In this document: positions 1-49,589 of the stretch, piece by piece
How positions within the stretch are numbered: the first letter of the stretch is position 1
Layout of the letters: each line of letters starts with the position of its first letter
From: Bacteroidaceae bacterium
GTDB lineage: Bacteria > Bacteroidota > Bacteroidia > Bacteroidales > Bacteroidaceae
Assembly (NCBI GenBank): GCA_045647345.1
Contig: JAZRMG010000181.1
Location: 1 to 56,297 of the forward strand
DNA length: 56,297 bases
Reading direction: 5' to 3'
Notes under the pieces: generated by a model
What the model was told of the DNA's origin: nothing
The model's database searches: none
What the model saw: only the letters and a program-made list of their open reading frames with translations
Made by a program: the position numbers and the translations under genes

Positions 1-1380
<1,380 letters not shown>

Positions 1381-32027: not shown

Positions 32028-32058
32028 TGTATATCGTTTTATAGGTTTATATTTTGTG

Positions 32059-32220
32059 GTAATATAGCAGTTTGCTAGTGGAACTTGTCATGCTGAACGT
32101 AGTGAAGCATCTCGCAAATGTTTCTTGCTAAGTCCCAGCGCGGGATCCTTCCGACGCTACGCTCTGTCAGGATGACACTCAGCGCGGAGAGAAAGCTTCT
32201 TTGGACAACAGCTATTTTAG
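32059..32220. repeat. Copy B of the ~165-bp nested-palindrome repeat element, inverted relative to copy A
   Basis: Bases 32138-32195 (gcgcgggatccttccgacgctacgctctgtcaggatgacactcagcgcggagagaaag) are the exact reverse complement of 25274-25331. The flanks are about 90 percent similar by manual alignment. Track ORFs 24935..25351(-) and 32118..32321(+) share the peptide RGILPTLRSVRMTLSAERK for this reason. Confidence 0.85.
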
Positions 32221-32227
32221 CATTGGT

Positions 32228-32300
32228 GTCATATCGAACGCATGTGAGATATCTCTGTCGTCCGTTTTTTTTGAGATCCCTCACTGCGTGTCGGGATGAC
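32228..32300. repeat. GTCAT...GATGAC hairpin element (family copy) abutting copy B
   Basis: The left arm is gtcatatcgaacgcatgtgagatatctc and the right arm is gagatccctcactgcgtgtcgggatgac. The loop is tgtcgtccgttttttttga. Confidence 0.7.
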
Positions 32301-32338
32301 ATTGACTTACGGGTCAACTGAAAGAATATTACCAAACT

Positions 32339-33436
32339 TTACTTGAATCTCCCAAACCGACAGCTCTTCCTCACCACCGGCTCGTCGAGCAGTTGGAATG
32401 TGGTGGCAGGTCCCAGGTTGCGGTCGCCCTTCCACGACGACACCTCCCAGGCCACATGTCCGTCGGGGGTGAGCTCTATCATCTGCAGCGGAGCACGTGA
32501 GGGGTTGAAGGTGGCCACGGCCGTCTTGTCCCATTCGTTGAACCAGTTGGTGATCACCGTGTTGCCATTCTTCAGTCGGTAGGCCTTCTGCGGGTTGTTC
32601 ACGCCATACAGTGTCGTGTTGGTCTCCCACACCACGGTGCCGTCGCGCTTCACCTCCTTGACGGGACCCTTGCGCCCCACCATCAGGATGTTGCCGTTCT
32701 CCAGCTCGGTAGCCGACCAGGGACCGAAGAGCTCCCATCGGTGCAGCTCCTTGCCCTTGGCATTGTATTCGGCCACGAAGCCCATCGCCATGTTGGCCAC
32801 CAGCAGGGTGCCTTGGCTGGTGAGGCGTGCATTGCGGAACTGTCCGTGCACGCTCCCCTTCTCGGGGTAGGGAATCACAAATTCGTGCACCACCTTCTGC
32901 TTGGCGATGTTCATCACCACCACCTTGGCAGGCTTGCCGTTCTGCACGTAGAGCACGTGCTTCTCGCCCACGGGCTGTATGGTGTGTATCTCGGTGCCCT
33001 CGGGGGCTTGGTGGCGCCATAGCTCGCGGCCCTCGGCATCGACCTCGGCAATGCCATACTGGTCGGCAATGAGGATATGTCCGTCGTCCGTCAGCACCGC
33101 GTCGCTTATCTCGCCCCGTCCATCAGCGTTGTCGTATCGCCAGATGATGTCGCCATCCTTCACCTTATACATGCGTCGGTTCTTCGACTGGCCCGTGTAG
33201 AGGAAATTGTGGCGGGCGAGGTCGCCCAGGTCTATGTATCCGTCTTCGTTGCCCAGGTATACGGTGCCGTCTGCCACGGTGGCGCTTCCCTTCAGGGTGC
33301 CGTCGTGGTGCGAGCTGCTCTTGTCGCTCACCGTTGTGCCCTCATCGCCCACGAAGTCGTAGTGCAAGATCAGCCCCTCTTGAGCCATGGCGCCCATCGT
33401 GAAGCACACCAGCAGTGTGAAAAGAAGTTTTTTCAT
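32339..33436 (-). CDS. Secreted beta-propeller repeat protein (function unknown)
   Basis: 365 aa with a signal peptide (MKKLLFTLLVCFTMGAMAQ). The N-terminal stretch LILHYDFVGDEGTTVSDKSSSHHDGTLKGSATV resembles the start of a LamG-like module. It is followed by repeated blade-like segments (DGDIIWRY, DGHILIAD, QGTLLVAN, NGNILMVG, NGNTVITN). Confidence 0.7.
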   Translation of the reverse strand: MKKLLFTLLVCFTMGAMAQEGLILHYDFVGDEGTTVSDKSSSHHDGTLKGSATVADGTVYLGNEDGYIDLGDLARHNFLYTGQSKNRRMYKVKDGDIIWRYDNADGRGEISDAVLTDDGHILIADQYGIAEVDAEGRELWRHQAPEGTEIHTIQPVGEKHVLYVQNGKPAKVVVMNIAKQKVVHEFVIPYPEKGSVHGQFRNARLTSQGTLLVANMAMGFVAEYNAKGKELHRWELFGPWSATELENGNILMVGRKGPVKEVKRDGTVVWETNTTLYGVNNPQKAYRLKNGNTVITNWFNEWDKTAVATFNPSRAPLQMIELTPDGHVAWEVSSWKGDRNLGPATTFQLLDEPVVRKSCRFGRFK

Positions 33437-33690: not shown

Positions 33691-33759
33691 TCACATAAGG
33701 ATGAGTGCGACTAATGCCAGCCCTATGCCGCGCAGCACGCGGATGAAAACTTCGTTCAT
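33691..33759 (-). CDS. Possible 22-aa hydrophobic micro-ORF downstream of the smalltalk-like ORF
   Basis: The minus-strand reading is MNEVFIRVLRGIGLALVALILM*, starting 12 nt after the stop of the upstream micro-ORF. Its 3' end lies inside a 12-bp perfect hairpin (gtcgcactcatc / gatgagtgcgac, about 33681-33711) that could be the terminator. The ORF is too short to support on sequence alone. Confidence 0.2.
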   Translation of the reverse strand: MNEVFIRVLRGIGLALVALILM

Positions 33760-33771
33760 GGCCGTTCGCGT

Positions 33772-33876
33772 TTAGGACATGCAGCTCACGATACCGAGCG
33801 AGCCTGCAAGCGCGGTGAGCACAGCGATGAGGATTTTGAGAATTTGTTTCCAGTCGGGTTGAGTTTTTGAGTTCAT
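33772..33876 (-). CDS. 34-aa single-TM micro-protein resembling the Bacteroidales 'smalltalk' family
   Basis: The minus-strand reading is MNSKTQPDWKQILKILIAVLTALAGSLGIVSCMS*. It has a polar N-terminus, one TM helix and a C-terminal SC motif. It lies downstream of an HU-family gene on the same strand, which is the context I recall for smalltalk proteins. It is below the 60-aa cut-off of the ORF track. Confidence 0.5.
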   Translation of the reverse strand: MNSKTQPDWKQILKILIAVLTALAGSLGIVSCMS

Positions 33877-33908
33877 AAGTTTTTGAGTTTTTCAGTTAAA
33901 GGTTTAGT

Positions 33909-33954
33909 GTCATCTCGAACGGAGTGAGAGATCCCTCGCCCTGCTCGGGATGAC
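33909..33954. repeat. Compact GTCATC...GATGAC hairpin element (family copy)
   Basis: The sequence is gtcatctcgaacggagtgagagatccctcgccctgctcgggatgac. The arms pair at about 19 of 25 positions. The element is flanked on both sides by ggtttagtgt (33901-33910 and 33961-33970). Confidence 0.7.
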
Positions 33955-33961
33955 ACGAATG

Positions 33962-34106
33962 GTTTAGTGTTTAGAGTTTAGTGTTTAGAGTTTTTGGAGT
34001 TCAGTAGTCAGTAGTTCAGCCAAATGTCTTTTTGCTGCTTTTCGTCATTGTTATCAACAGTCGAAACTATCGTCTAAACTCCTGTAACTCCTGACTCCTG
34101 AACTCC
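33962..34106. repeat. Word-array block: 15-bp tandem repeat x2 followed by an inverted pair of stuttering repeats
   Basis: gtttagtgtttagag occurs twice in tandem (33962-33991). ggagttcagtagtcagtagttcag (33996-34019) is an imperfect reverse complement of ctcctgtaactcctgactcctgaactcc (34079-34106). The two are separated by a 59-bp spacer. Confidence 0.75.
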
Positions 34107-34141
34107 TTGTAATTGTCCAGCGCATCGAGCGCAGGCCCCAG

Positions 34142-34555
34142 TTACGCCATCACCTCGGAGCCGATGCGCTTATACTGTATCGCCTTGGCGATATCCTTCT
34201 TCAGCTCCACCTCGGGGCGGAAGTTGATGTGGTAGCCGCGTATCATGCTGCTGGGGACGAAGTCCTTGGCCTCAATGGTGTCGCGGGTGAAGCACTTCGA
34301 GCGGATGCTGATGACAAACGAACCCAGGTCTTCGAGCACTACGCGGCGACCGCTGAGCAGCGCGTTCTGCACGAAGGGCTTGATGCTCGAGAGCACGGCC
34401 AGCGCGTCGGCCTTGGTACAGGTGGTAGAGTAGGCGATGTCCTGCGCCAGCTCCTTGAAGGTGTAGTCACTGGTCTTCGATGCCTTACATGAGAAGTAGT
34501 CGGTGCCCTCGGCACCATTGGGGTTCTTACATTTCGATACTTTGTAGTTGATCAT
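34142..34555 (-). CDS. HU-family (Bacteroidales-type) DNA-binding protein
   Basis: 137 aa: MINYKVSKCKNPNGAEGTDYF...FKELAQDIAYSTTCTKADALAVLSSIKPFVQNALLSGRRVVLEDLGSFVISIRSK. This matches the pattern of the HU-like family that accompanies VirE/DUF3987 genes in Bacteroides. Confidence 0.75.
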   Translation of the reverse strand: MINYKVSKCKNPNGAEGTDYFSCKASKTSDYTFKELAQDIAYSTTCTKADALAVLSSIKPFVQNALLSGRRVVLEDLGSFVISIRSKCFTRDTIEAKDFVPSSMIRGYHINFRPEVELKKDIAKAIQYKRIGSEVMA

Positions 34556-34630
34556 AGTGTTTAGGGGTTAAGGGTTAAAGGTTAAGGGATAAGGGATTCG
34601 AATTTCGTTCCTCGTTCAACGTTGACGATG

Positions 34631-34638
34631 CAAAGATA
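34631..34638 (-). promoter_or_regulatory. -7 promoter element (TAtcTTTG on minus strand) for the HU-family gene
   Basis: Plus-strand caaagata lies 75 nt upstream of ATG 34555. Confidence 0.5.
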
Positions 34639-34794
34639 CTACATCTTTTTTTGTCGTTCCTGCTTGGTGCAACAGACCGCCAAAGACCTTGCGCAAGTGA
34701 TTTTGTTTCAGTGAAATAAAAAAATATCGCACCTGCGGCGCTCCGCGCTCGCAGGTGCGTGAATAATCGTTCGTGGGGCAGAAAATACCCAAAG

Positions 34795-34988
34795 GTCAAC
34801 AGTAAACAGTCAACAGTTACTTTGCTCTGTCACCCCCTTTTTCGCTTTCGTCAGCGCCTATAATAATAGGGCTTATTTATTTATTAAATATACGTAGTAT
34901 ATATAAATAATAAATAAGACTTTTTTTATATGAACATTTCAAGCCCTGATGTGAGTGCGCTAATTATCTGTTGACTGTTACTGTTGAC
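34795..34988. repeat. 21-22-bp inverted repeats built of CAGT/CAAC words, flanking a 150-bp spacer with an AT-rich imperfect palindrome
   Basis: gtcaacagtaaacagtcaacag (34795-34816) pairs with ctgttgactgttactgttgac (34968-34988), with one indel. The spacer holds cttatttatttattaaatatacgtagtatatataaataataaataag, centred on TACGTA (34891-34896). The right arm overlaps the last codons and stop of the HUH-Y1 gene. Confidence 0.8.
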
Positions 34989-36399
34989 ACATCTCCTCTG
35001 CTATCACATTCATCGCTACAAAGCGGTAGCGCCCCGTGGTGTGGGGTATGTTGCCCGTCTTGGCCGTTACGCGCCGGGCTATCTCGGGGCGCTCCAGCGC
35101 CCCGGCGTGCGGCTCTACCAGCAGCAGGCGCCCCGCGGCGCATGCCTCGAAGTACACCCCCTGAGGCTTGTAGTAGCGGTAGTGGCTGCTCTCGGGGTTG
35201 GGGAAGCCCTGCTCCAGCAGGATGATGAGCGGGAAGCCGTGCTCGCGCAGCGAGCGTGCTATCACCTTCTCGCCCTGCGATATGGCGGCGGTGATGAATA
35301 CCGCACCGTTGGCAGCCTGCATCAGGCATTCGTGCCTGCGTGCCTCGATCTGCTCGGGGGTGAGGCGCCGCGAGCATTGCAGCACCTGCCGCTGCGGATG
35401 CCCGGCAAGGAAGATGTTGCCCAGCACCGTACACGGGAAGCCACCTACGGTATAGTCTTGCCTGATGCGGAACAGCTCGCGGTTGGCCCTCTTCAGCGCC
35501 AGGCGCCGCGGGTTGTCCTTGATGTAGCTCTTCATGCGTGCCAGCTGTCCCCTGCCATAGAGCAGGCTGTCGTGATACTCGTGGGCGAAGAGGAGGAGGT
35601 TGCGGCTCTTGGGGCTCACCATACTCGCGGAGACACCCGCGAGTACCCGACGCGCCGCCTCGCGCGATGCATCGCTGCCAGCGCCCCATGCCCCAGTCGT
35701 AGCGCCCGCGCCAGCATGGGTGGGCGTGGCACCAGTGGCGTCGCTTGCGGTGGTGGCGCTTGTGTTGGTGTTGGTGGTGTCGCTTGCGGTGGTGTTGTTG
35801 GCGTTGTTGTTTGTGTTGGTGTTGTTGGTGGTGTTGTTGGTGTCGCTTGCGTTGGCGTTGTTTGTGTCGCTTGCGTTGGTGGTGTTGGTGTTGTTTTTGG
35901 TGTTAGCATTGCTTGCGTTGGCGTTAGCGTTATTGTTCTCGCGGCTATCTCCGCGAGCCATCCCTGATCCTGCCATCCCTGATCCCGCCATCCCCGTGCC
36001 CGCCATCACCTCGCGAGCCGTTTCCACCATGGCCGTGAAGGCATCGCTGCACTGCACCTTGAACCATCGTATATACTGCCCCAGGTGCCTGGGCAGCCTA
36101 TCGTGGATGTGTAGCAAGATGTGCACATGGTCGGGCATGATCACATAGTCGAGGATCTCTATCGAGGCGGCGCCCAGGTAGGTGGGTATGCGCTCTATCT
36201 CTGCGGCCACTGCCGAGCCCAGTGCCGTGAGGGCTACGGTATTGCCTTGCAGCACGCCCAGGAGCGGCCTGCGATCTACGGTCACCAGCGTCAGCATCTG
36301 TATGGATGGTGACTGGTAGTCCATCCATCGGGCGCGGTAGAGGTGCTCTCTGAGCTTCTCGCACCGCCACCCCTCGGGTGTGAGGTGTGCCTTAGCCAT
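34978..36399 (-). CDS. HUH-Y1 (IS200/RAYT-like) transposase-domain protein with an internal low-complexity insert and a C-terminal extension
   Basis: The HUH motif is DYVIMPDHVHILLHI, with the HVH codons at 36121-36129. The Tyr motif is LFAHEYHDSLLYGRGQLARMKSYIKDNPRRL, with the Y codon at 35575-35577. About 135 aa of MAG(S/T)G x4 and N/T/A/S-rich sequence lie between them. A ~165-aa C-terminal domain follows. I prefer the start at MAKAHLT (36399) because a -7 box lies inside the longer track ORF. Confidence 0.75.
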   Translation of the reverse strand: MAKAHLTPEGWRCEKLREHLYRARWMDYQSPSIQMLTLVTVDRRPLLGVLQGNTVALTALGSAVAAEIERIPTYLGAASIEILDYVIMPDHVHILLHIHDRLPRHLGQYIRWFKVQCSDAFTAMVETAREVMAGTGMAGSGMAGSGMARGDSRENNNANANASNANTKNNTNTTNASDTNNANASDTNNTTNNTNTNNNANNTTASDTTNTNTSATTASDATGATPTHAGAGATTGAWGAGSDASREAARRVLAGVSASMVSPKSRNLLLFAHEYHDSLLYGRGQLARMKSYIKDNPRRLALKRANRELFRIRQDYTVGGFPCTVLGNIFLAGHPQRQVLQCSRRLTPEQIEARRHECLMQAANGAVFITAAISQGEKVIARSLREHGFPLIILLEQGFPNPESSHYRYYKPQGVYFEACAAGRLLLVEPHAGALERPEIARRVTAKTGNIPHTTGRYRFVAMNVIAEEMCQQ

Positions 36400-36420
36400 G
36401 CTTGCAGTTTCTTCTTGCCG

Positions 36421-36428
36421 CAAAGATA
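36421..36428 (-). promoter_or_regulatory. -7 promoter element (TAtcTTTG on minus strand) for the HUH-Y1 gene
   Basis: Plus-strand caaagata lies 21 nt upstream of ATG 36399. Confidence 0.45.
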
Positions 36429-36561
36429 CAAAAGTATCTCCGAGTTTCAATTCAAAAGAGAGTGCTTTTTGTTCTCTCCGTCCGTCCATCAGCCCGTCCT
36501 TCCGTTCTCGCGGGTGTCTCTGCGGGTAAAAGAGAGGTCAGCACACCCTCCCAGATAACAG

Positions 36562-36590
36562 CACGGGAGCGCCTGGTGGGCGCTCCCGTG
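36562..36590 (-). terminator. Hairpin terminator of the LRR gene
   Basis: A perfect 12-bp stem, cacgggagcgcc / ggcgctcccgtg, with a 5-nt loop. It lies 32 nt downstream of the LRR gene stop at 36622. Confidence 0.7.
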
Positions 36591-36621
36591 AGTGCTGTGG
36601 TGTGAGTGATGGAGAGGGCTG

Positions 36622-37536
36622 TTACATGCCTGTCTTCACCATCACCTTCTTGCCGTCCACGATGTATATGCCGTCCTTGGTGGGGGTGGCTACGCGGCGG
36701 CCGTGGAGGTCGTAAATTGTTATTCGTGCATTGTCAATTGTCAATTGCTCCACGCCCATCTCCTCGTCGGTGAGTGCCACGATGTTGCCGAAGCTGCTCC
36801 AGGGAGCGGTAGTCTTATAGCTTTCAATAGCGCTGGCAGGTACATGCAGGGTGGCATACTCGATGTATGAGCCATTGAAGGCATCACTCTCTGCCGAGGG
36901 CACCTTCTCGGCATAGCAGTACACATCGGTCAGCTCGGGGCAGCCCGCAAAGGTCTCGCTATTAATATACTTTACACTCTTGGGCAGCACGATCGTGGTG
37001 AGGCTGCTGCAACCCTGGAAAGCATAGATTCCAAAGCTCGTCACGCCCTCGGGGATGTTGATGGCGGTGAGGCTGCTGCACAGATAGAAAGCATAGCCTC
37101 CAATGCTTGTCACGCCCTCGGGGAGGATGATGGCGGTGAGGCTGCTGCAACTCATGAAAGCAGATTCTCCAATGCTCGTCACGCCCTCGGGGATGGTGAT
37201 GGCGGCGAGGCTGCTGCAACCCCAGAAAGCACCGTTTTCAATGCTCGTCACGCCCTCGGGGAGGGTGATGGCGGTGAGGCTGCTGCAAAGAGCTAAAGCA
37301 CCCTCTCCAATGCTCGTCACGCTATATGCCACGCCATCGTAGGTGACGGTGGCGGGGATGGTGATAGAGCCGGAGTAGTCGTTATCGTAATAAGGATCAT
37401 CTCCCTTGTAGGTCACCTCGGCCTGCTTGGCCTTAGATACGAGGTTATACCAGATGCCGTCGATCTCGACTTTGGTTTGCGCACTGGCCAGCATGGGCAG
37501 CAGGGCTGCGAAAAGGAATAGTAGATGCTTCTTCAT
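36622..37536 (-). CDS. BspA-type leucine-rich-repeat surface protein with a T9SS C-terminal sorting domain
   Basis: 304 aa with a signal peptide (LPMLASAQ). Five 23-aa repeats are present (SLTAITLPEGVTSIENGAFWGCS and variants). The C-terminal tail ITIYDLHGRRVATPTKDGIYIVDGKKVMVK is typical of Por/T9SS CTDs. Confidence 0.85.
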   Translation of the reverse strand: MKKHLLFLFAALLPMLASAQTKVEIDGIWYNLVSKAKQAEVTYKGDDPYYDNDYSGSITIPATVTYDGVAYSVTSIGEGALALCSSLTAITLPEGVTSIENGAFWGCSSLAAITIPEGVTSIGESAFMSCSSLTAIILPEGVTSIGGYAFYLCSSLTAINIPEGVTSFGIYAFQGCSSLTTIVLPKSVKYINSETFAGCPELTDVYCYAEKVPSAESDAFNGSYIEYATLHVPASAIESYKTTAPWSSFGNIVALTDEEMGVEQLTIDNARITIYDLHGRRVATPTKDGIYIVDGKKVMVKTGM

Positions 37537-37573
37537 GTTTTGTTTAATGTTTAATGATGAATGTTGAATGATG

Positions 37574-37581
37574 CAAAGGTA
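37574..37581 (-). promoter_or_regulatory. -7 promoter element (TAccTTTG on minus strand) for the LRR gene
   Basis: Plus-strand caaaggta lies 37 nt upstream of ATG 37536. Confidence 0.5.
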
Positions 37582-37792
37582 ATGAAAGAGAATGGGATAG
37601 CCAACGATGGGTGTCTAAATTGTGAAAAAGGGGCGAAAAGATGTTTCACAACATACTGCGGAATTTGAATTTTCGGGGCGCTGCTGAGCGTCAATTTGTT
37701 GCGCGAAGGGGCAGAAAAGTTATCCACCGAAGGGCGCTGAAACGGTGGAAAACTTTTCCCTCCCTGTCCCACGATATAGGACATCAATGCAC

Positions 37793-37800
37793 TATATTTG
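37793..37800 (+). promoter_or_regulatory. -7 promoter element TAtaTTTG upstream of the S24 peptidase gene
   Basis: tatatttg followed by ca, 76 nt upstream of ATG 37877. The leader contains an 8-bp hairpin (gggcagac / gtctgccc, 37815-37836), followed by the G-free tandem array. Confidence 0.5.
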
Positions 37801-37876
37801 CACTCTGAATGCACGGGCAGACACGTCGGTCTGCCCCTACACACTAAACCCTACACACTAAACCCTACACAAAACC

Positions 37877-38770
37877 ATGACCTACCAACGCTTACCCCAA
37901 GTTCCACCGATGGAACTGCCCGAAGAATTGAAAGAGACGTTTGCCCTGCTCGAGGCGCAGGGCTTGAACCCCGAGTTGTGCGACACGCCCGTGCCCTACT
38001 TCGATGCGGGCATCCCTTGCGGCAGTCCGCGCGAGGTGTATGAGGCCACGCCCGACGGCTACATCCTGGTGCCCCGCTCGCTCGTGGGCAATGATGCCAC
38101 GGTGATAGCGCGCGTGACGGGCGACTCGATGAAGGATGCCGGCATCGAGCACGATGACCAGCTGCACATCCTGCTCGACGCACCGGTGCACGATGGCGAT
38201 GTGGTGGTGGCCTGCATCGATGGCGAGTGCACGGTGAAGTCGTACTACAAGGATGCCGATGGTGCTGTGTGGCTGGTGCCACGCAACGATGACTACCGTC
38301 CCATACGCATCACCGAGGAGATGAACGCGCATATCGTGGGTAAGGTCATCTCGCACCGCAAGCCTGCTCCGCGCACCTCGTTCAGCTACATGCAGCGTGC
38401 CGTGGAGCGCACGCTTGCCGAGCGTGCCGAGGCGGCAGCTACCGTGATCCATACGACGGACGAGGTGCGCAACATGCTGCTGGAGGCATGTGTGGGGACG
38501 ATGACCGTATCGGCCGACTGGATTGCCGTGTACCGCATCCTTGTGGATAGGTGTGGTGCTCCCTCTTCGTTCAAGGCCTTTGCCGAGTATGTCAACGACC
38601 TAGCGCTTGATGAGCTGCCCCCGTGCACTGCCGACTCGTTGCGCAAGGCCGACCCCGTGTATCTGCGGCCTCTCTTTGAGTGGACTCCCGAGAGGGCTCC
38701 CAAGGTGCGTGTATCTATCCTTGACAAGCGTCTCTCTATGGCTCGCGCACTGCGTAAGATGCTGGCATAG
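37877..38770 (+). CDS. S24 (LexA/UmuD-like) self-cleaving peptidase domain protein with a C-terminal domain of unknown function
   Basis: 297 aa. The sequence VPYFDAGIPCGSPREV...ARVTGDSMKDAGIEHDDQLHILLDAPVHDGDVVVACIDGECTVKSYY carries the Ser (GDSM) and Lys (TVKS) dyad. It also has a CG/AG-type cleavage-site-like segment. No N-terminal HTH is visible. Residues ~170-297 are unassigned. Confidence 0.75.
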   Translation: MTYQRLPQVPPMELPEELKETFALLEAQGLNPELCDTPVPYFDAGIPCGSPREVYEATPDGYILVPRSLVGNDATVIARVTGDSMKDAGIEHDDQLHILLDAPVHDGDVVVACIDGECTVKSYYKDADGAVWLVPRNDDYRPIRITEEMNAHIVGKVISHRKPAPRTSFSYMQRAVERTLAERAEAAATVIHTTDEVRNMLLEACVGTMTVSADWIAVYRILVDRCGAPSSFKAFAEYVNDLALDELPPCTADSLRKADPVYLRPLFEWTPERAPKVRVSILDKRLSMARALRKMLA

Positions 38771-38780
38771 CACCTCTGGT

Positions 38781-38874
38781 ATTTTGCCCAGAAGTTGGCC
38801 AAATTTTGGCCGCTCATTCCAAGAGTTTGGCCGCTCGGGCAAGAATTTGCCCATAAGTTGTCCATAAGTTGTCC
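38781..38874. promoter_or_regulatory. Helically phased array of seven (A)AnTTGNCC words between the S24 gene and its terminator
   Basis: TTGCCC/TTGGCC/TTGTCC words start at 38784, 38795, 38806, 38827, 38847, 38858 and 38869. The spacings are 11, 11, 21, 20, 11 and 11 bp. Confidence 0.5.
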
Positions 38875-38875
38875 T

Positions 38876-38906
38876 CCCTCACCGAGATTTTCGGTGGGGG
38901 ATTTTT
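38876..38906 (+). terminator. Rho-independent terminator downstream of the S24 gene
   Basis: The stem ccctcaccga / tcggtggggg includes one G-U pair, has the loop gattt, and is followed by attttt. Confidence 0.7.
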
Positions 38907-39081
38907 GTATGCGTAACTTCGCATTGTCAACGATGCCGACGCGGTATGAAAGCGTCGGTTGCGACGACGGGAGGTTTATCTCCCCAAAGGAGTAATTATT
39001 AACCCGGGTAGTGGGCCGAGGAGATTTCTCGAGAATCAGGTGGCCGCCGTTTCTGAAGCTCGCCCATTAAACGAAACAACA

Positions 39082-39864
39082 ATGAACACAACAATTCAGA
39101 TTTTCGAGAATGCCGAGTTTGGCAAGGTAAGGACAATGCAGGATGCCGAGGGCGAACCGCTCTTCTGCGCCAAGGATGTGGCAGTAGCATTGGGGTATGG
39201 CAATAGCCGTGAAGCGTTGCGAAAACATGTGGAGCAAGAGGATGTCACAAAACGTGACACCCCAACCGCAGGAGGGACCCAGCAGATGCAGTATGTGAAC
39301 GAGAGCGGCCTCTATGCCCTCATCCTGGGCTCTAAACTTGATAGCGCCCGCCGATTCAAGCACTGGGTGACCTCGGAGGTATTGCCCGCCATACGCCGAC
39401 AGGGCGGCTACATGGTGGCTCGCATGAACGAGAGCGACGAGGTGATCATGGCCCGCGCACTGCAGATCATGCAGGCCACACTGGAGCGTCGCGACCGCGA
39501 GATAGCGCTGCTCAAGCCACGCGCCGAGTATGCCGACCACGTGCTCGACTCCATCGCCTGTCTCACCGTGACGCAGATAGCCAAGGAGCTCTCCATGACG
39601 GGCCACGAGCTCAACCGCCTGCTCTGCCAGCGCGGCATCCAGTACCCGCAATCGGGGCAGTACCTCCTCTACGCCAAGTATGCCCGCCGCGGCTATGCGC
39701 AGAACCGCACGCACGAGTGGTGCAACACCATGGGCGAACTCGTGACACGCACCTACTTGGTGTGGACGGAGGCGGGACGGGAGTTTATACACCAGCTGGT
39801 GCACGGTGCTGAATATTTCGTTCCCACACGAAATACACAAGACTCACAAAGGGCAGGTCGCTAA
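39082..39864 (+). CDS. Phage-type antirepressor (BRO-N domain plus KilAC/ANT C-terminal domain)
   Basis: The reading from ATG 39082 begins MNTTIQIFENAEFGKVRTMQDAEGEPLFCAKDVAVALGY...ESGLYALILGSKLDSARRFKHWVTSEVLPAIRRQGGY, which is the BRO-N domain. It continues ADHVLDS..LTVTQIAKELSMTGHELNRLLCQRGIQY, which is KilAC-like. The track ORF starts 123 nt upstream. Confidence 0.8.
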   Translation: MNTTIQIFENAEFGKVRTMQDAEGEPLFCAKDVAVALGYGNSREALRKHVEQEDVTKRDTPTAGGTQQMQYVNESGLYALILGSKLDSARRFKHWVTSEVLPAIRRQGGYMVARMNESDEVIMARALQIMQATLERRDREIALLKPRAEYADHVLDSIACLTVTQIAKELSMTGHELNRLLCQRGIQYPQSGQYLLYAKYARRGYAQNRTHEWCNTMGELVTRTYLVWTEAGREFIHQLVHGAEYFVPTRNTQDSQRAGR

Positions 39865-40115
39865 CGCCCTTGCACCCTCCGGATAACCTTTTTCTTCTCA
39901 CGCAGAATCCGCAGAAAACGCAGAGGCAAGTCGCTACGCCCTTGCTGTCGGCGTTGCCGCCGAGTGTTCTCATCCGGAGGTACATACGAGCGATAGCGAT
40001 GTATGAAGGTCTGCGCAAGTCCGCGATTTCTGCGTGAGAAACAAGAAGCTCTGCGTGAGACAATCTCCGCGATGCAAGCAATAAACAATCAAACAATCAA
40101 AAAAAACTACACAAT

Positions 40116-40511
40116 ATGAAACAATATTTTAATAGCAACGAGACCTTCGAACATTGCGAGGTGAAGGTGAGCCAGGACGGTCGCATCGAGATACATACCC
40201 CGAGTTTCTACACTGCCGAGCTGGAGCGCCTGGGCAAACCTGAGAAGACCATCCGCGGCCGCGTGAAAATGGTGGAGAAGGACTTCATCTTCGAACCCTA
40301 TGCCGAGAACTCGCGCAAGCCTACCTTCTCGAAGCAGGTGGTGGTGGGCAGCACCACGCTGGGCGTGACCGAGGATAAGCTGAAACTCTCTATGGTAATG
40401 CCTCGCCACATGCGCAAGGAGCTCATGGTGATGTACATACAGGCCGAGATCGATGAGGTGAAGCGCAGGCTGGAGGAGGACCTATACAATAAATTGAAAA
40501 TTGAGAATTGA
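40116..40511 (+). CDS. Hypothetical protein (131 aa)
   Basis: An intact ORF with a G-free leader. I recognise no motif. The last codons (NKLKIEN*) run into a 7-bp ATTGARA tandem array (40492-40523). Confidence 0.55.
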   Translation: MKQYFNSNETFEHCEVKVSQDGRIEIHTPSFYTAELERLGKPEKTIRGRVKMVEKDFIFEPYAENSRKPTFSKQVVVGSTTLGVTEDKLKLSMVMPRHMRKELMVMYIQAEIDEVKRRLEEDLYNKLKIEN

Positions 40512-40579
40512 GAATTGAAAATTCGTGCAAGCGAGCGCAGCCGAATTTCGACGAAGTCAAAATTGAAACCCGCGTCTCT

Positions 40580-40696
40580 GTCATCCTGAGCGAAGCGAAT
40601 GGATCCCGCGCGGTGGCTATGAAACGTCGCGTGAGACTCATCGAAGAGGATTGCGCCAGGTCCTAACGCGAGATCCCTCTCTACGCTCGGGATGAC
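40580..40696. repeat. GTCATCC...GGATGAC long hairpin element (family copy)
   Basis: The left arm is gtcatcctgagcgaagcgaatggatcccgcg and the right arm is cgcgagatccctctctacgctcgggatgac. About 57 bp lie between the arms. It is flanked by word arrays: ATTGARA x4 on the left and cacactaaactctaaaaac on the right. Confidence 0.8.
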
Positions 40697-40736
40697 ACGA
40701 CACACTAAACTCTAAAAACGACACTCTAATCAAAAC

Positions 40737-41150
40737 ATGAAATATTTTAAGATAGACGAACTCACCCACAGCCTCAGAGCGCAGGCCTGCGGCATCGACA
40801 ATACGCCTCCTGCCTCGGCCGTACCTCTGATGGTGGAACTCATCACCAAGGTGCTCGACCCCATCCGCGAAAAGTGGCAGTCGCCCATCTACATCACTAG
40901 CGGCTACCGCTGCCCCATGCTGAACAAGAAGGTGGGCGGTGTAGAGAACAGCTATCACCTGCGCGGCATGGCAGCGGACATCACGGCCAAGAGCGTGTTC
41001 TACAACACGGCACTCTACACCGAGATACGCATCCTGCATGCCAAGGGACTCATCCCCCTCACCGAGTGCTACATGCACCGCCAAGGGCTATACATCCACG
41101 TGGCGTATGACCCAGCCGCACCGAGCGACAATCCGTTCTTCACAAAGTAG
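40737..41150 (+). CDS. Peptidase M15A-family (D-Ala-D-Ala carboxypeptidase / phage endolysin-like) zinc metallohydrolase
   Basis: 137 aa: FKIDELTHS...ACGIDNTPP...ITSGYRCPMLNKKVGGVENSYHLRGMAADI...LYIHVAYD. It carries the H-x6-D ... H pattern of Peptidase_M15_3. Confidence 0.75.
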   Translation: MKYFKIDELTHSLRAQACGIDNTPPASAVPLMVELITKVLDPIREKWQSPIYITSGYRCPMLNKKVGGVENSYHLRGMAADITAKSVFYNTALYTEIRILHAKGLIPLTECYMHRQGLYIHVAYDPAAPSDNPFFTK

Positions 41151-41284
41151 GAGACCCACCCCATCCCTCCCTGTGAGGGAGGGGGTGCGGAGTCCACTGA
41201 AAAGAGTGTTTAGTATTTAACAAACCCCACCACGCAGCGATGTCTGCAAGTCCTCCCTCACAGGGAGGATTTAGGTGGGTCTCC
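41150..41284. repeat. 135-bp element with ~33-bp terminal inverted repeats, each arm itself a hairpin
   Basis: The left arm is ggagacccaccccatccctccctgtgagggaggg. The right arm is cctccctcacagggaggatttaggtgggtctcc. The inner self-complementary cores are at 41165-41183 and 41251-41269. The element starts in the M15 stop codon and ends 11 nt before the primase-helicase ATG. Confidence 0.8.
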
Positions 41285-41295
41285 TATATTTTTTT

Positions 41296-43698
41296 ATGAT
41301 AAATTACGTCAACAACTCATTCGATAAAGTGCTGAAGCCGTGCGATGCTCAGCAATTTATGACCCTCACCCAAAGCGAGCAGACCGAGAAACTCATTCTC
41401 GGTCATCGCGCAGGGGAGAAGAATAGCAAGGCCAAGTTGCCTGCACTCACCTATATGGGCGTGCTCGACGAGGCCAAGTATAAGGAATATTTGAAGAAAT
41501 GCGAGGCGCAGGGCACCAAGCCGCTCGGCTCGCGTCGCATCGACTTCATGCGCCCCACGGGGCTCTTGATGCTCGACTTCGACCATGTACAGACCCCCTC
41601 CAACCTCCCCCTCTATGGGGAGGCTTCACAGGCATCGCGGACTATCATTGACTCTCCCGTGAAGTTGTGGGAGTATATCGTGAATGTTTATGATAATGTG
41701 GACTTGCCCCTTACTGAGTGGGTCTGTCTCGCCCACATCACGCCCAGCGGCGATGGCTTGCGTGTGGTAGTGAAGCGCACCGAGGGCACTACCATCGAGC
41801 AGGAGCAGTACGAATGGTGCAAGGCAATGAAACTCGATGCCGTAGGTATCAAGCCCGATGCCGCGTGCAAGGACATCTCGCGCCTGTCGTTCGCTCCCAT
41901 GCAGAAGGAAATCTTGTATTACAACCCCTCACTGCTCTTTGCCCCACTGCCCGAAGCGAAGGATTACCCCGATGGTTCCATCTTTGGAGTGTCTCCTGTC
42001 ATCCTGTGCAACGCGAAGGATCTCGCAGAGTGTAATGGTGAGAATGGCTTGCAAGGTCCCTGCGCGGGATCCTTCGCATCCGCTCAGGATGACACGAAGG
42101 GTGCGGTTTCTTTCCCCACAGACTACAATGGAGTGGAATATGAGGAGATTGTCCGTCGCCTCGAAGAACAGCTTGGCGGCCGCCCCGAGCATGGCGCGCG
42201 CAACTCGTTCATCTTCTCCATGGCCTGTAACCTGCGCTACATCTGCAATGACGATGCCGCATGGATAGCTCAGATACTCCCCACCTATGGCGAAGACCCG
42301 CAGAAGCAGCGCGCCACCATTCAGAGTGCTGTGAACCGCCCCATGAGTCGCACCATGCCCGAGACCATGAGTCGCGCCATCCGTATCGCCAAACTGGGAG
42401 CCGAGGTGGATAAATCAGAAATCAGAAATCATAAATCAGAATTGCCACCGGCAATGCCATCGGCTTTGCCGGAGCTAATGGAACTGCTCACCTCACGCAC
42501 GCCCGACAAGATGCGTGCTGCCGTGGCCATGAGTGTGTTCCCACCGCTCGGTGCTCACCTGCAGGATGTGAAGTTTACCTATTGGGATGGCCGCGACTAC
42601 GAACCCTCGTTTATGAATGTGCTCGCCGCTCCGCTCTCGGCAGGTAAGAGCGCCGTAAACATCCCCATCGACTATCTCATTGCCGACATCGAGGCGCGCG
42701 ACGAGGTGGCACGCGAGAAGGAGGCTGCGTGGAAGGAGCGCTGCGCCACACTGAAGACCACCGAGGATAAGCCTGCGCGTCCCAAGGGATTGAGCGTGCA
42801 AGTGCTCTCGTCGGATATGACCAATGCTGCCTTCGTGCAGCGACTCTCCGATGCCGAGGGTAAGTTCCTCTACACGCAGATGGACGAGATAGAACTGCTC
42901 AACGGCCTCAAGGCCAACGGCTCCTCTGACGTGGTGAGTGCCATCTTGCGACTCGCCTTCGACTGCGGCAAGTATGGTCAGGAGCGCGTGGCCTCGAACG
43001 CCATCAACGCCAAGGTGCGCGTGCGGTGGAACTGGAATGCCTCGACCACCATACAGCGCGTGCGCAAGTATTTTGCCAAGAACATTGCCGATGGTACCCT
43101 CTCGCGCCTCTCCTTCGCCACCATCATCAAGGACGAGGATGACTGGGGCGAGCAGCGCCCCAAGTTCGCGCAGTATGGGCAGCCCTTTGCCGATGCCCTG
43201 CAGCCCTATATCGACCGCCTGTGTACCTGCTCGGGTACGCTCGTGTGCCCCGAAGCCATCGCGTGGGCTGAGCAGATGTGTGATGAGCAGGTCGCCTATG
43301 CTCGCGAGATAGACGACCGCACCTATGCGCAGTTCTCGTTCCGCTCGGTGCTCATGGGCTTCTACCGCGCCATGCTGCTCTACATCGCCCACGGCATGCA
43401 GTGGTCGGGCGAGATTGCCGAGTTTGCCGCATGGAGCGTGCGCTACGACATGTGGTGCAAGATGCGTTTCTTCAGCGACATGATGCACAAGGATATGGAA
43501 GAGGAGCGCTCTGCCGTGCAGCGTGGCCCCGTATCACTGCTCGCCCTGCTGCCGCAGGAGTTTACCAAGCAGCAAGTGCAAGAGGTGCGCGTGGCGCAGG
43601 GGATGAGTCCGAATCCGAAAAATATGCTGAACTCTTGGAAGCAACGCGGATACATTGTTCTTGATCATGAGCGAGGCGTATATATGAAGTGTAAATAG
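41296..43698 (+). CDS. Primase-helicase-like replication protein (VirE/BT4734-type N-terminal domain, PriCT-like middle, DUF3987-type P-loop C-terminal domain)
   Basis: 800 aa from ATG 41296; the track ORF begins at GTG 41275, inside the upstream inverted repeat. The motifs are LPALTYMGV...GLLMLDFDHV...LAHITPSGDGLRVVVKR...DISRLSF, followed by the PriCT-like ARNSFIFSMACNLRY. Walker A is APLSAGKSAV (about 42630-42660) and the Walker B-like motif is FLYTQMDEIE. Confidence 0.8.
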   Translation: MINYVNNSFDKVLKPCDAQQFMTLTQSEQTEKLILGHRAGEKNSKAKLPALTYMGVLDEAKYKEYLKKCEAQGTKPLGSRRIDFMRPTGLLMLDFDHVQTPSNLPLYGEASQASRTIIDSPVKLWEYIVNVYDNVDLPLTEWVCLAHITPSGDGLRVVVKRTEGTTIEQEQYEWCKAMKLDAVGIKPDAACKDISRLSFAPMQKEILYYNPSLLFAPLPEAKDYPDGSIFGVSPVILCNAKDLAECNGENGLQGPCAGSFASAQDDTKGAVSFPTDYNGVEYEEIVRRLEEQLGGRPEHGARNSFIFSMACNLRYICNDDAAWIAQILPTYGEDPQKQRATIQSAVNRPMSRTMPETMSRAIRIAKLGAEVDKSEIRNHKSELPPAMPSALPELMELLTSRTPDKMRAAVAMSVFPPLGAHLQDVKFTYWDGRDYEPSFMNVLAAPLSAGKSAVNIPIDYLIADIEARDEVAREKEAAWKERCATLKTTEDKPARPKGLSVQVLSSDMTNAAFVQRLSDAEGKFLYTQMDEIELLNGLKANGSSDVVSAILRLAFDCGKYGQERVASNAINAKVRVRWNWNASTTIQRVRKYFAKNIADGTLSRLSFATIIKDEDDWGEQRPKFAQYGQPFADALQPYIDRLCTCSGTLVCPEAIAWAEQMCDEQVAYAREIDDRTYAQFSFRSVLMGFYRAMLLYIAHGMQWSGEIAEFAAWSVRYDMWCKMRFFSDMMHKDMEEERSAVQRGPVSLLALLPQEFTKQQVQEVRVAQGMSPNPKNMLNSWKQRGYIVLDHERGVYMKCK
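41998..42093. repeat. GTCATCC...GGATGAC hairpin element embedded in frame inside the primase-helicase CDS
   Basis: The sequence is gtcatcctgtgcaacgcgaaggatctcgca ... cgcgggatccttcgcatccgctcaggatgac. It is 96 nt long and translates as VILCNAKDLAECNGENGLQGPCAGSFASAQDD. Confidence 0.75.
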
Positions 43699-43737
43699 GT
43701 ATACAGATACAGTATACAGTTAATATGCTCTCAATAA

Positions 43738-43986
43738 ATGTGTATTATGCTAAACGTTCCTGCAATTATGGCGAGATTTGAGATTCTAACCTATGGCTAC
43801 GGCGAATTGGCCGAGGCGTATTACCCCGATAGGGAGTATAGCACCGCTGTCCGCCTCTTCCATAAAGACCTGCACTGCACGCGCGGCTTGTGGGGTGCCC
43901 TACAGAAGCAGGGCTACAAGGAGGGCGACCGCATCTTTACAAGGGCGCAAGTGAAGACTATAGTCAAGTACCTGGGCGACCCGTAA
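43738..43986 (+). CDS. DUF4248 domain-containing protein
   Basis: 82 aa or shorter from an internal Met. ELAEAYYPD...AVRLFHKDLHCTRGLWGALQKQGYKEGDRIFTRAQVKTIVKYLGDP matches my recollection of the DUF4248 C-terminal signature (...Q+..I+.+LGEP). In Bacteroides this family is usually found next to VirE/DUF3987 genes. Confidence 0.65.
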   Translation: MCIMLNVPAIMARFEILTYGYGELAEAYYPDREYSTAVRLFHKDLHCTRGLWGALQKQGYKEGDRIFTRAQVKTIVKYLGDP

Positions 43987-44139
43987 TATAAAGTTTGTAT
44001 ATTTGTTTTTAGAGATTTGTTTTGGGGTGCGCTCTGCTGTGAAGCAGGGCGCATCTTGCTACTATGAGCGGCAGCTACGGCAACCTGTATAAAAAAGTAA
44101 GTAACCAGGCATAGTCTTCGCCAAATCGAAAAATTAGCT

Positions 44140-44147
44140 TATCTTTG
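44140..44147 (+). promoter_or_regulatory. -7 promoter element TAtcTTTG upstream of the 44189 gene
   Basis: tatctttg lies 41 nt upstream of the ATG. Confidence 0.5.
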
Positions 44148-44188
44148 TCCCGTAATTTATTAACTTTTTAATCTGTTTTGACAAGGAC

Positions 44189-44929
44189 ATGAAGAAAAAC
44201 AATGTATTAGCTATTCTATGCGCTCTTCTTCTCGGGGGCTCTGTGGCTCCGCTTGGTGCGCAGGAGCGTGGTGACTGGTCTATGACCGTAGGTGCCGATG
44301 CCGTGAGCAGTTTCCTGTGGCGTGGATTTGATATGGCAGGACCAAGTGTTCAGCCCTCGGCCTACATTGACTATGAAGGTGAAGAGTGGTCGGTAAGTAT
44401 GGGTGCGTGGGGCAGCAAAGCGCTACAGAAGGGCGAATACAACGAGTGGGACCTCTCTGTGGAGGCTACGTGGCGCAACATCACGCTCTCGCTGGCCAAC
44501 TATCGTGAGTATTATGGTGCAGCATTTGATGATAACTACCTCGACCTGGGCCTCAGTGTCACACTGAGTGAAGATATCCCTGTCACCTTCTCGTGGTACT
44601 CTATCGTGAACCATCTTGATGGTGGCGTATGGGACGGTAGTGACCGCTTCCATTGGGCCGACGCCTTCCCCTCATACTTTGAGGTGAGCTACGACTTCTC
44701 CCTCTCGGTGGTCGACTGTACCGTGGCAGCCGGTGTGCTCCCCTTCGGGTCGGACTATTACGGCAACGATGCCTTTGGCGTATGTAACCTGGGTCTCAGT
44801 GCCGGGCACGAGTTTGAACTTAGGCATGGTGGCACGCTCCCCGTGGCTGCTCAGGTGATGTATAACCCCATGGGACGTGATTGCTTCTGGGGGGTAAGCG
44901 TGGGCTACTACTTCACGTGGGACTGGTAA
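44189..44929 (+). CDS. Outer-membrane beta-barrel protein, TorF-like putative porin
   Basis: 246 aa with a signal peptide (LLLGGSVAPLGAQ). It shows an alternating-hydrophobic beta-strand pattern, SSFLWRGFDMAGPSVQPSAYIDY, and an aromatic C-terminus (YYFTWDW). The family assignment is tentative. Confidence 0.6.
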   Translation: MKKNNVLAILCALLLGGSVAPLGAQERGDWSMTVGADAVSSFLWRGFDMAGPSVQPSAYIDYEGEEWSVSMGAWGSKALQKGEYNEWDLSVEATWRNITLSLANYREYYGAAFDDNYLDLGLSVTLSEDIPVTFSWYSIVNHLDGGVWDGSDRFHWADAFPSYFEVSYDFSLSVVDCTVAAGVLPFGSDYYGNDAFGVCNLGLSAGHEFELRHGGTLPVAAQVMYNPMGRDCFWGVSVGYYFTWDW

Positions 44930-49389: not shown

Positions 49390-49451
49390 GTGCAAACCGA
49401 GCGAAAATGCAAATTTATTTGCGATTTTCCGAGGTGCAGCCTAATTTCAGG

Positions 49452-49589
49452 CTACGAAGTAGGCTAAAGGTAGTGCAAACCGAGCGAAACCTTCAAGCTG
49501 CGAAGCAGATTAAAATTAGTGCAAACCGAGCGAAACCCACAGTCTGCGAAGTAGACTAAAGGTAGTGCACCAACGCATGAGCAAACAAG
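49452..49589. repeat. Three 46-bp tandem repeats containing the core TAGTGCAAACCGAGCGAAA
   Basis: The units start at 49452, 49498 and 49544; the third is diverged. A fourth copy of the core lies at 49388-49406. The core is the reverse complement of the tttcgctc..ttgcacta motif at 50462-50480, upstream of nusB. Confidence 0.8.

Follow-up and report, generated by a model that had tools for sequence, protein, structure and literature searches.

The region described here spans positions 33691 to 43986 of a 56,297-nucleotide stretch of DNA (the window) from a Bacteroidaceae bacterium, contig JAZRMG010000181.1 of assembly GCA_045647345.1. An initial annotation, made from the sequence alone, had called this region an integrase-less, repeat-saturated accessory island of about ten genes, with the look of a phage satellite or of a domesticated defense or competition module. 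Its gene list proved essentially right when compared with an open reading frame (ORF) listing and profile searches. As we read the sequence, the region is a frame with genes for an HU-HIG DNA-binding protein and a smalltalk peptide at one end, a rightward operon at the other, and a cargo slot between them, which here holds a gene resembling those of REP-associated tyrosine transposases (RAYTs; REP, repetitive extragenic palindromic) and a gene for a BspA-type leucine-rich repeat (LRR) surface protein. The features are as follows (aa, amino acids; nt, nucleotides; MITE, miniature inverted-repeat transposable element; AEP, archaeo-eukaryotic primase).

32028-32338, no strand: left junction zone, from the start of DUF362 to the LamG-derived gene, with a 131-nt MITE-like element at 32085-32215.
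32339-33436, minus strand: surface-protein gene within the inserted segment, 365 aa, Mal_s_1-like match.
33772-33876, minus strand: smalltalk/DUF6486 peptide, 34 aa, single transmembrane segment, left-end frame gene (NF033879, 43.1 bits versus a cut-off of 24.7).
34142-34555, minus strand: HU-HIG DNA-binding protein (PF18291, E 2e-20, 73.3 bits versus a cut-off of 26.2).
34978-36489, minus strand: RAYT-like HUH-Y1 protein, 503 aa (weak Y1_Tnp and REP-transposase matches).
36622-37536, minus strand: BspA-type LRR_5 surface protein (cargo), 304 aa, with signal peptide (E 5e-61).
37537-37876, no strand: divergent control region between the LRR and S24 genes, with -7 boxes and a (CCCTACACACTAAA)n leader.
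37877-38770, plus strand: Peptidase_S24 protein of the self-cleaving type (PF00717, E 2e-24).
38779-38874, plus strand: allele-specific direct-repeat array, TTTG[GC]CC four times and AAGTTG[GT]CC three times, a putative operator.
38873-38921, plus strand: conserved hairpin CCTCCCTCACCGAGATTTTCGGTGGGGGA and T-run (predicted S24 terminator), then a near-consensus -7 box, TAACTTCG (predicted promoter of the rightward operon).
38959-39864, plus strand: Bro-N/KilAC (Ant-like) protein (Pfam and PHROGs); start codon uncertain, with an alternative ATG at 39082.
40116-40511, plus strand: u131, a 131-aa protein (no family match).
40578-40705, no strand: MITE-like palindromic element, TGTCATCCTGA...TCGGGATGACA.
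40737-41150, plus strand: Peptidase_M15_3 cell wall hydrolase of the endolysin type (Pfam; phrog_894, endolysin).
41148-41286, no strand: second inverted-repeat element, TAGGAGACCCACC...GGTGGGTCTCCTA.
41296-43698, plus strand: fusion of a BT4734-like_N AEP primase and a P-loop (Walker A/B) part, "VirE-like," ~800 aa (Pfam; PADLOC PrimPol).
43738-43986, plus strand: DUF4248 small protein, right-end frame gene (Pfam).
43987-44214, no strand: right junction; similarity to strains with an alternative arrangement starts abruptly at 44214.

On sequence comparison, the region is an accessory island rather than core chromosome, because a related species has an empty site, the same frame occurs at other chromosomal sites, the island is a mosaic among conspecific contigs, and an alternative right junction exists. 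The initial annotation is thus borne out on this point, and the presence/absence and junction comparisons that it had proposed supplied the first and last of these observations. In 24 contigs of a related species, a glycoside hydrolase gene (GH2) is followed directly by DUF362, with a 4-nt overlap; the GH2 protein there is 79% identical to the conspecific GH2 (L101; loci carry L numbers throughout), and the DUF362 protein is 90.7% identical to that of the window. In the window's species, a LamG-type gene and the whole module, ~12.5 kb in all, lie between GH2 and DUF362. Because of the tight 4-nt overlap in the related species, insertion appears more parsimonious than deletion. No target-site duplication is resolvable at the divergence of the empty site, and searches for att-like (attachment site) repeats at the island ends gave only low-complexity or short chance-level matches. 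The gene at 32339-33436 is a deletion variant (~490 bp missing) of a 534-aa Laminin_G_3 gene found in all conspecific contigs, and the island probably starts ~1.4 kb to the left of the limit first given, taking in this LamG-derived gene. A GH2-like fragment at window positions 1-1371 was considered as the island-flanking GH2 and rejected, as it differs from the GH2 found beside the island in conspecifics.

The left flank (MlaD, DnaA, ribonucleotide reductase, FolB, and DUF362) is syntenic in conspecifics, with 96.5-98.4% DNA identity and >99% protein identity. Within the island, identity to conspecific contigs was 100% for HU, 93-98% for Bro, 89-94% for the RAYT-like protein, 88% for M15 (which is absent from some), 85% for smalltalk, 73% for S24, 59-62% for the primase, ~50% for DUF4248, 98% or 50% for u131, and 42-50% for the LRR protein, whose 304 aa here compare with 783 aa or a non-LRR protein there. 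On the right side, DUF4248 adjoins GH2-GH28 in conspecifics and, in the window, a gene for an outer membrane protein (OMP)-like protein, followed by redoxin and M20 genes. Contigs with an identical redoxin protein fall into two classes, with L003 and L008 arranged as the window and L001, L002, L004, and L006 not; in these four, all similarity ends exactly at 44214, within the signal-peptide codons of the OMP-like gene. This flanking gene (44189-44214 compared with L001 4255-4560) has two alternative 5' ends and promoters in different strains, the recombination breakpoint falling within its signal-peptide codons, with an intact signal peptide both ways. In a sister species (GH2 93% and GH28 91% identical), the site beside GH2 is also occupied, with a DUF4248 that is 89% identical and a primase that is 41% identical, which means an in-place replacement by another primase type; long residence and cassette exchange are therefore part of the picture.

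The same gene set was found between other chromosomal genes. On a 187-kb contig (L119), smalltalk, HU, a RAYT-like gene (72% identical), LRR, a u131-like gene, M15, primase, and DUF4248 lie between gcvT and proC, and in another genome, HU, a gene for an 1,800-aa Ig-like surface protein, S24, a u131-like gene, M15, primase, and DUF4248 lie beside a rhamnogalacturonan lyase gene. The first three genes downstream of the primase in the surveyed loci (119 proteins) belong to 178 unrelated Pfam families, mostly housekeeping and none recurrent, and on these grounds we rejected, as a general rule, an association of the module with capsule loci. Base composition does not mark the island, whose G+C content is as high as that of its housekeeping flanks. 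The dnaA gene (25913-27316) is located only ~6.5 kb leftward of the module, both here and in every conspecific contig; since the GC skew keeps its sign there, dnaA may not mark the origin region.

A scan of one genome per species, with patterns from the family alignment, found 177 relatives, and an exhaustive profile search gave 624 clusters at 50% identity (E ≤ 1e-30). A metagenome scan with the window primase gave 10 loci, mostly short. The closest primase homologues, at 74% identity, belong to uncultured Bacteroidaceae from the guts of ruminants and other animals. Several metagenome-assembled genomes carry two or three copies of the module that are 40-88% identical. Compared with the 177 relatives in genomes, the family had one remote match in IMG/VR (which is not limited to virus-like particles and captures satellites poorly), one remote match among GenBank phages, and none in PLSDB.

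When the window proteins were mapped onto 80 loci and all ORFs were clustered, a recurrent frame emerged, with HU-HIG and smalltalk on the minus strand, then variable genes, and on the plus strand a regulator, often Bro/KilAC, a small protein, a hydrolase, the primase, and DUF4248. The regulator is S24 or, in other clades, a sigma-70-like protein, and the hydrolase is M15 or a member of an uncharacterized 160-aa family. Upstream of the primase, S24 was found in 12 of the 35 loci with at least 6 kb of upstream sequence, HU in 10, Bro in 8, and smalltalk, which pairs with HU in relatives, in 8; DUF4248 followed the primase in 24 of 57 loci. These counts come from single-sequence searches and are lower bounds. 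The pairing of S24 with Bro, which the initial annotation had singled out as what is different here, is thus a recurrent trait, and both genes are present in all conspecific contigs. In the window's clade, u131 is conserved directly upstream of the hydrolase and primase genes. In Prevotella-type modules (L028-L036, L051, L053, and L055), a sigma-70-like protein (regions 2 and 4) replaces S24/Bro; its gene is flanked by those of two small proteins and often preceded by genes for conserved ~340-aa and ~280-aa proteins.

We found no description of this module in the literature searched, where DUF4248/DUF3987 genes turned up only as entries of expression tables or in work on a P. gingivalis deletion, and no function has been assigned to it there, in agreement with the initial annotation. 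Exact-protein look-ups gave no record for the window primase, LamG variant, M15, and u131, and matched DUF4248 and DUF362 to short contigs only.

It had also been stated that integrase, capsid, terminase, tail, and conjugation genes are absent from the island and tRNAs from the window. Our searches agree: Pfam and PHROGs gave none of these families among the ten island proteins, and the window has 0 tRNAs by ARAGORN and 0 Rfam matches. In conspecific contigs, no integrase or recombinase was found in the 10-kb flanks on each side, and genes of integrative and conjugative or mobilizable elements (integrase, relaxase, type IV secretion system) were found neither in the island proteins nor in the conspecific flanks. 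Among 237 neighboring proteins of relatives there was no recurrent recombinase; in each of the two sets (118-119 proteins), at most two members matched, and Phage_integrase was not among the families listed. PHROGs and Pfam searches for satellite helper-exploitation and packaging genes returned only regulator, DNA-binding, and endolysin matches. The PADLOC defense-system models gave only the PrimPol-domain match on the primase, and the window copy has no recognizable defense gene.

The S24 protein carries its peptidase domain at the N-terminal end (aa ~46-160), followed by an all-alpha C-terminal domain (aa 169-297). An AlphaFold2 model based on 63 homologues had a predicted local distance difference test score (pLDDT) of 83.7, with aa 169-297 as a confident all-helical domain, and in Foldseek the best matches of aa 67-161 were C-terminal domains of LexA, UmuD', and lambda CI (E 1e-8, TM-score 0.83). 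With these proteins it shares the S24 fold, the GDSM motif, a likely cleavage-site loop (PCG) N-terminal to the core, and the Ser/Lys dyad (S84/K121); G82, S84, M85, and K121 are invariant in the 63 sequences. Unlike LexA and CI, it has an inverted domain order, with ~45 residues before the S24 domain, no N-terminal helix-turn-helix, and the C-terminal helical domain of ~130 aa. LexA_DNA_bind (PF01726) occurred only in the most distant S24 matches, ~205 aa long. Compared with conspecific alleles, the N-terminal part is 97-98% identical and the C-terminal domain 43-44% identical.

In many loci from several genera, the stop codon of S24 is followed by the same layout, an array, then a conserved hairpin with T-run, then a -7 box (TAACTTCG or TAACTTTG). 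The arrays of relatives hold five to eight allele-specific direct repeats of 8-10 nt, and such putative operators are tandem direct repeats, whereas those of LexA and CI are dyads. The repeat unit is AAGTTG[GT]CC and TTTG[GC]CC in the window, AAGTTTCC in L101 and L092, CATTCCGC in L015 and L122, AACTTTACG in L078 and L079, and AAACTTTCC in L068. It tracks the C-terminal domain: L015 and L122 share a unit and are 77% identical in this domain, 54% in the N-terminal part, and 67% in the primase, and L101 and L092, which also share a unit, are 97% identical in the C-terminal domain. It does not track the other parts, since units differ between the window and L101, which are 98% identical in the S24 N-terminal part and 98% in Bro, and between L047 and L082, whose primases are 89% identical. 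Because the variable C-terminal domain co-varies with the array that precedes the promoter of the Bro-to-DUF4248 genes, we infer that S24 may be a LexA-like self-cleaving regulator with inverted domain order, in which a swappable C-terminal domain reads the adjacent array and controls the rightward operon.

Exact -7 boxes (TAnnTTTG) occur upstream of HU (TATCTTTG, 83 nt before the gene), LRR (TACCTTTG at 37581), S24 (TATATTTG at 37793), and two flanking genes only. Their placement suggests four transcription units, HU-smalltalk, LRR-RAYT, S24, and Bro to DUF4248.

The primase protein matched PF08800 (BT4734-like_N) with 30.5 bits versus a cut-off of 22.4 and the PADLOC PrimPol model at E 1.6e-8, and homologue alignment places its true start at the ATG at 41296. 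Proteins of the BT4734 family have DhD in motif I, K or R in place of H in motif II (GLK), and hD in motif III (PMC11724360). The corresponding AEP motifs of the window protein, D101-F-D103-H, G161-L-R163, and D200, are invariant in 24 homologues, and on these motifs the protein is assignable to the BT4734-like AEP primase family. Because Walker A (SxGKS) and Walker B (DE)-like motifs are invariant in the same 24 sequences, it likely carries a P-loop NTPase as well. Of the "VirE/DUF3987" label first given to it, only the invariant Walker A/B-like motifs were borne out; DUF3987 (PF13148) and VirE (PF05272) gave no match in the window protein, in its C-terminal half even at E ≤ 5, or in five relatives. 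PDB searches with this protein and two family alignments, as well as PDB sequence and profile searches with the RAYT-like protein, DUF4248, and u131, gave nothing significant. The gene contains an in-frame MITE-like palindrome at 41996-42102, translated as ...SPVILCNAKDLAECNGENGLQGPCAGSFASAQDDTKG..., and homologues have differing translated repeat elements in the same four hypervariable loops (alignment columns ~150-330 and 430-560), which accounts for their length range of 757-897 aa.

The repeats for which the region had been called saturated are real; they are of heterogeneous kinds, with no long dispersed repeat. In smalltalk, HU, LRR, S24, u131, and M15, the 5' leader consists of tandem A/C-rich repeats of 7 and 14 nt. 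These G-poor leader repeats (7-14 nt) lie at 33859-34107, 34561-34595, 37546-37573, 37835-37876, 40075-40101, and 40687-40736, with CCCTACACACTAAA three times and CCCTTAA five times as examples, and related loci have much longer leader arrays, such as ACTCTGAGA 11 times in L066. A MITE-like palindromic family, TGTCATCCYGA...TCRGGATGACA, has copies at 25254, 32085, ~33918, 40578, and 41996. Two 131-nt copies (25254-25384 and 32085-32215) are 94% identical in inverted orientation and bracket the dnaA-ribonucleotide reductase-folB-DUF362 block, the right copy lying in the left junction zone. Other repeats are coding, within the LRR and RAYT-like genes. A near-perfect 61-nt palindrome of A and T only (34865-34925) lies in G+C-rich DNA between the stop codon of the RAYT-like gene and the HU promoter. 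Tandem repeats outside the island are unrelated (1684-1769, 22 nt, 3.9 copies; 49446-49569, 46 nt, 2.7 copies).

In the RAYT-like protein, a low-complexity insert of ~150 aa, rich in Asn, Thr, and Ala, lies between the HVH and SYIKDNP motifs, and the C-terminal domain has no assigned family. Its earlier designation as HUH-Y1 holds for these motifs and not for the family scores, which are under the cut-offs (PF01797 Y1_Tnp, 21.1 bits versus 23; NF047646 REP_Tyr_transpos, 31 bits versus 80). The hairpin CTCGCGGAGACACCCGCGAG, which is REP-like, occurs three times within and just upstream of the gene (35622-35646, 35935-35957, and 36504-36528), and two of these hairpins, in inverted orientation, flank a tandem GTTGGT-like tract (35735-35925) that encodes the insert between the HUH and Tyr motifs. 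Among conspecific contigs, the length of the gene varies (called at 488-557 aa).

Large surface proteins of the LRR or Ig-like kind are the typical cargo beside the regulator in the window's clade; the C terminus of the window's LRR protein resembles, by eye only, a sorting domain of the type IX secretion system. A RAYT-like gene accompanies the cargo in the window, conspecifics, L011, and L119 and is missing from others such as L122. In relatives, the 7 kb before the primase include non-frame genes for HaeIII, DpnII, SacI, and DpnI restriction enzymes, several methyltransferases, ResIII, Fic, RhuM, AIPR, and Abi_2, as well as for fimbrillin-like proteins and OmpA. These upstream genes matched 295 PADLOC families (E ≤ 1e-10), versus 47 for the downstream genes, a count that is inflated by redundant restriction-modification models and in which the contrast is still clear.

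We tentatively favor the reading that the region is a member of a large family of integrase-less Bacteroidaceae accessory islands that derive from phages or mobile elements, have an operon switched by S24, and spread with helpers, by recombination, or both. S24 would be a LexA/CI-like self-cleaving repressor of inverted domain order whose C-terminal domain binds the direct-repeat array immediately in front of the Bro-u131-M15-primase-DUF4248 operon promoter. Autocleavage, in response to SOS or a phage cue, or antagonism by the Ant-like protein would turn the operon on. The primase/P-loop protein would then replicate the island, in place or after helper-encoded release, and the hydrolase would act on the cell wall. 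Spread and allele replacement would proceed through helper elements, homologous recombination, or both, with no self-encoded recombinase; movement could rely on helper-dependent transfer, on homologous recombination between flanks, or, within this clade, on the RAYT-like enzyme. Self-replication and a capacity for lysis, as first proposed, are predictions from domain content. The diversity of regulator domain, primase, and DUF4248 in strains that are otherwise identical resembles, by analogy, the immunity and replicon specificity types of phages and satellites.

A number of observations weigh against this reading. No helicase family was matched by the C-terminal half of the primase protein, and the AlphaFold2 model of this protein (24-sequence alignment) has a pLDDT of 52 with nonsignificant Foldseek matches. 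No holin was identified in the island, which leaves lysis a conjecture. No fold was identified for the C-terminal domain of S24, as the Foldseek list for the whole model is dominated by the S24 domain; the window's array is more degenerate than those of relatives, and the co-variation of array and C-terminal domain could stem from physical linkage alone. The empty site could in principle be a deletion, and the GH2-adjacent site is filled in two species or more, which agrees equally well with long residence and with mobility. No origin, excision product, or circular form was observed, and terminal overlaps sought in 118 loci gave none. Copies within a genome are never near-identical, and at 40-88% identity they give no sign of recent transposition.

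Some of these points suit a different explanation, possible if on the unlikely side, in which the region is an immobile, domesticated hypervariable locus, a recombination hotspot for defense and surface cargo whose frame genes serve as homology arms or cargo regulators and whose primase acts in repair or defense rather than in element replication. Such a locus would have no recombinase, no circular copies, and next to no presence in viral collections, as we found, and the in-place primase replacement at a site occupied in two species, the left flank syntenic in all conspecific contigs, the consistent divergence of within-genome copies, and the defense-rich upstream neighborhood all fit it. BT4734-type primases occur inside defense systems (PADLOC; PMC11724360), and a role in biological conflicts has been proposed for HU-HIG proteins (PMC5499826). 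However, an identical 9-10-kb frame lies between unrelated housekeeping operons, the congener's empty site argues that a whole unit was inserted, the gene set of self-cleaving repressor, Ant, endolysin-type hydrolase, and primase-helicase is that of a mobile-element early module, and the window copy is without a defense gene.

Every satellite described so far, to our knowledge, carries an integrase together with one or more functions for helper exploitation or packaging, and satellites are recovered in virions. That the island is a true phage satellite, induced by a helper phage that supplies excision and packaging to its regulation, replication, and lysis genes, seems to us improbable. With P4-like satellites, phage-inducible chromosomal islands (PICI), their capsid-forming kind (cfPICI), and PICMI, it shares a compact regulator with a primase-helicase, the lack of virion genes, and a hotspot of variable cargo, as in the defense hotspots of P4-like elements (PMC9122126), and it has a predicted replication module of its own in the BT4734-type primase with Walker motifs. 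Satellites likewise show allelic diversity of regulator and replicase, which looks like immunity or incompatibility types, and several diverged copies per genome would suit one. Yet the integrase, a core gene of every described satellite family, is missing, as are capsid-redirection or terS-like genes and any other helper-exploitation or packaging gene; att-like direct repeats are not resolvable at the junctions, and the two remote matches in IMG/VR and GenBank phages contrast with the 177 in genomes. Because the integrase was sought and not found, we do not file the island with the phage satellites (P4-like, PICI, cfPICI, PICMI, and PLE), as had been suggested; it may work in a satellite-like way. 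No phage satellite in Bacteroidota was described in the literature searched.

In the window's clade, the island might instead be moved by its own RAYT-like HUH-Y1 enzyme acting on hairpin (REP/MITE-like) ends, through single-strand transposition or rolling-circle release. The gene does travel with the frame in the window, L011, L091-L094, and L119, its HUH and Y motifs are intact, palindromic elements fill the junctions and spacers, one of them at the left junction, and REP-like hairpins flank parts of the gene. This route is nevertheless rather improbable: a RAYT-like match was found in 2 of the 35 loci with enough upstream sequence, L122 has none, the scores are under the family cut-offs, the catalytic halves are split by the low-complexity insert, and no conserved terminal hairpins were defined. 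As a rule, RAYTs are domesticated, occur in single copy, and have short REPs as their targets.

It is very improbable that the region is a decaying remnant of a prophage, an NBU-type mobilizable transposon, or an integrative and conjugative element that lost its integrase and other genes, as the phage-type genes (Ant, endolysin-like M15, and S24) and the occurrence of BT4734-type primases in Bacteroides mobilizable elements, with VirE/DUF3987 beside integrase and Mob genes in B. thetaiotaomicron, might suggest, because the same integrase-less frame with intact ~800-aa ORFs recurs in hundreds of 50%-identity clusters from many genera, and no pseudogenes were seen in the frame.

The nearest characterized elements, the AgaPP/AgaPH islands, are integrated Bacteroidota elements that bear an integrase and combine a BT4734-like (VirE-N) primase-polymerase with a PriCT-DUF3987 helicase (PMC11724360); NBU-type mobilizable transposons with primases are close as well. 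These elements and the window island have in common a BT4734-family AEP primase with motif II GLK/GLR, a Walker A/B ATPase, small DNA-binding proteins, and variable accessory or defense cargo. In those elements, an integrase lies at one end and a tRNA att site lies opposite, and primase and helicase are separate proteins, whereas the window island has no integrase, tRNA, or Mob gene and a single ~800-aa fusion without detectable DUF3987. Its frame adds S24, Bro, hydrolase, HU, and smalltalk genes, unlike theirs.

HU-HIG proteins are a multicopy Bacteroidetes clade of HU proteins, proposed to act in conflicts with invasive DNA and reported to have almost no conserved gene linkage (Burroughs et al. 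2017, PMC5499826). The window protein matches this clade (E 2e-20); unlike in that account, a link between HU-HIG and smalltalk recurs here, and 10 of the 35 loci have HU-HIG at most 10 kb upstream of the primase module. With defense islands and hotspots, the islands share strain-variable content, and the surroundings in relatives are rich in restriction-modification, abortive-infection (Abi), and candidate defense families. They differ from these in that the window copy carries surface-protein rather than defense cargo and in that the hotspot is framed by its own regulatory and replication genes, not by core housekeeping genes.

The islands constitute a large, undescribed family of ~10-kb mosaic islands, and the related known kind is that of mobile-element-derived primase-helicase islands. 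We consider it doubtful, if worth stating, that they form a new class of integrase-less inducible replicons in Bacteroidales chromosomes, working either as the first phage-satellite-like "hitchers" of Bacteroidota or as in-place amplifiers of themselves and of their defense or surface cargo, under an S24 repressor of inverted architecture whose swappable C-terminal domain would read tandem-repeat operators and thereby define immunity types. The module is abundant, with several copies per gut Bacteroidaceae genome and hundreds of 50%-identity primase clusters, and it has no assigned function or mobility mechanism; the proposed S24 switch with its tandem-repeat operators is a concrete entry point to island induction. 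In strains that are otherwise nearly identical, the islands rank with the most variable parts, and in relatives they lie beside restriction-modification and Abi genes or genes for large surface proteins; they therefore probably influence phage resistance and the individuality of strains in communities of the gut and rumen.

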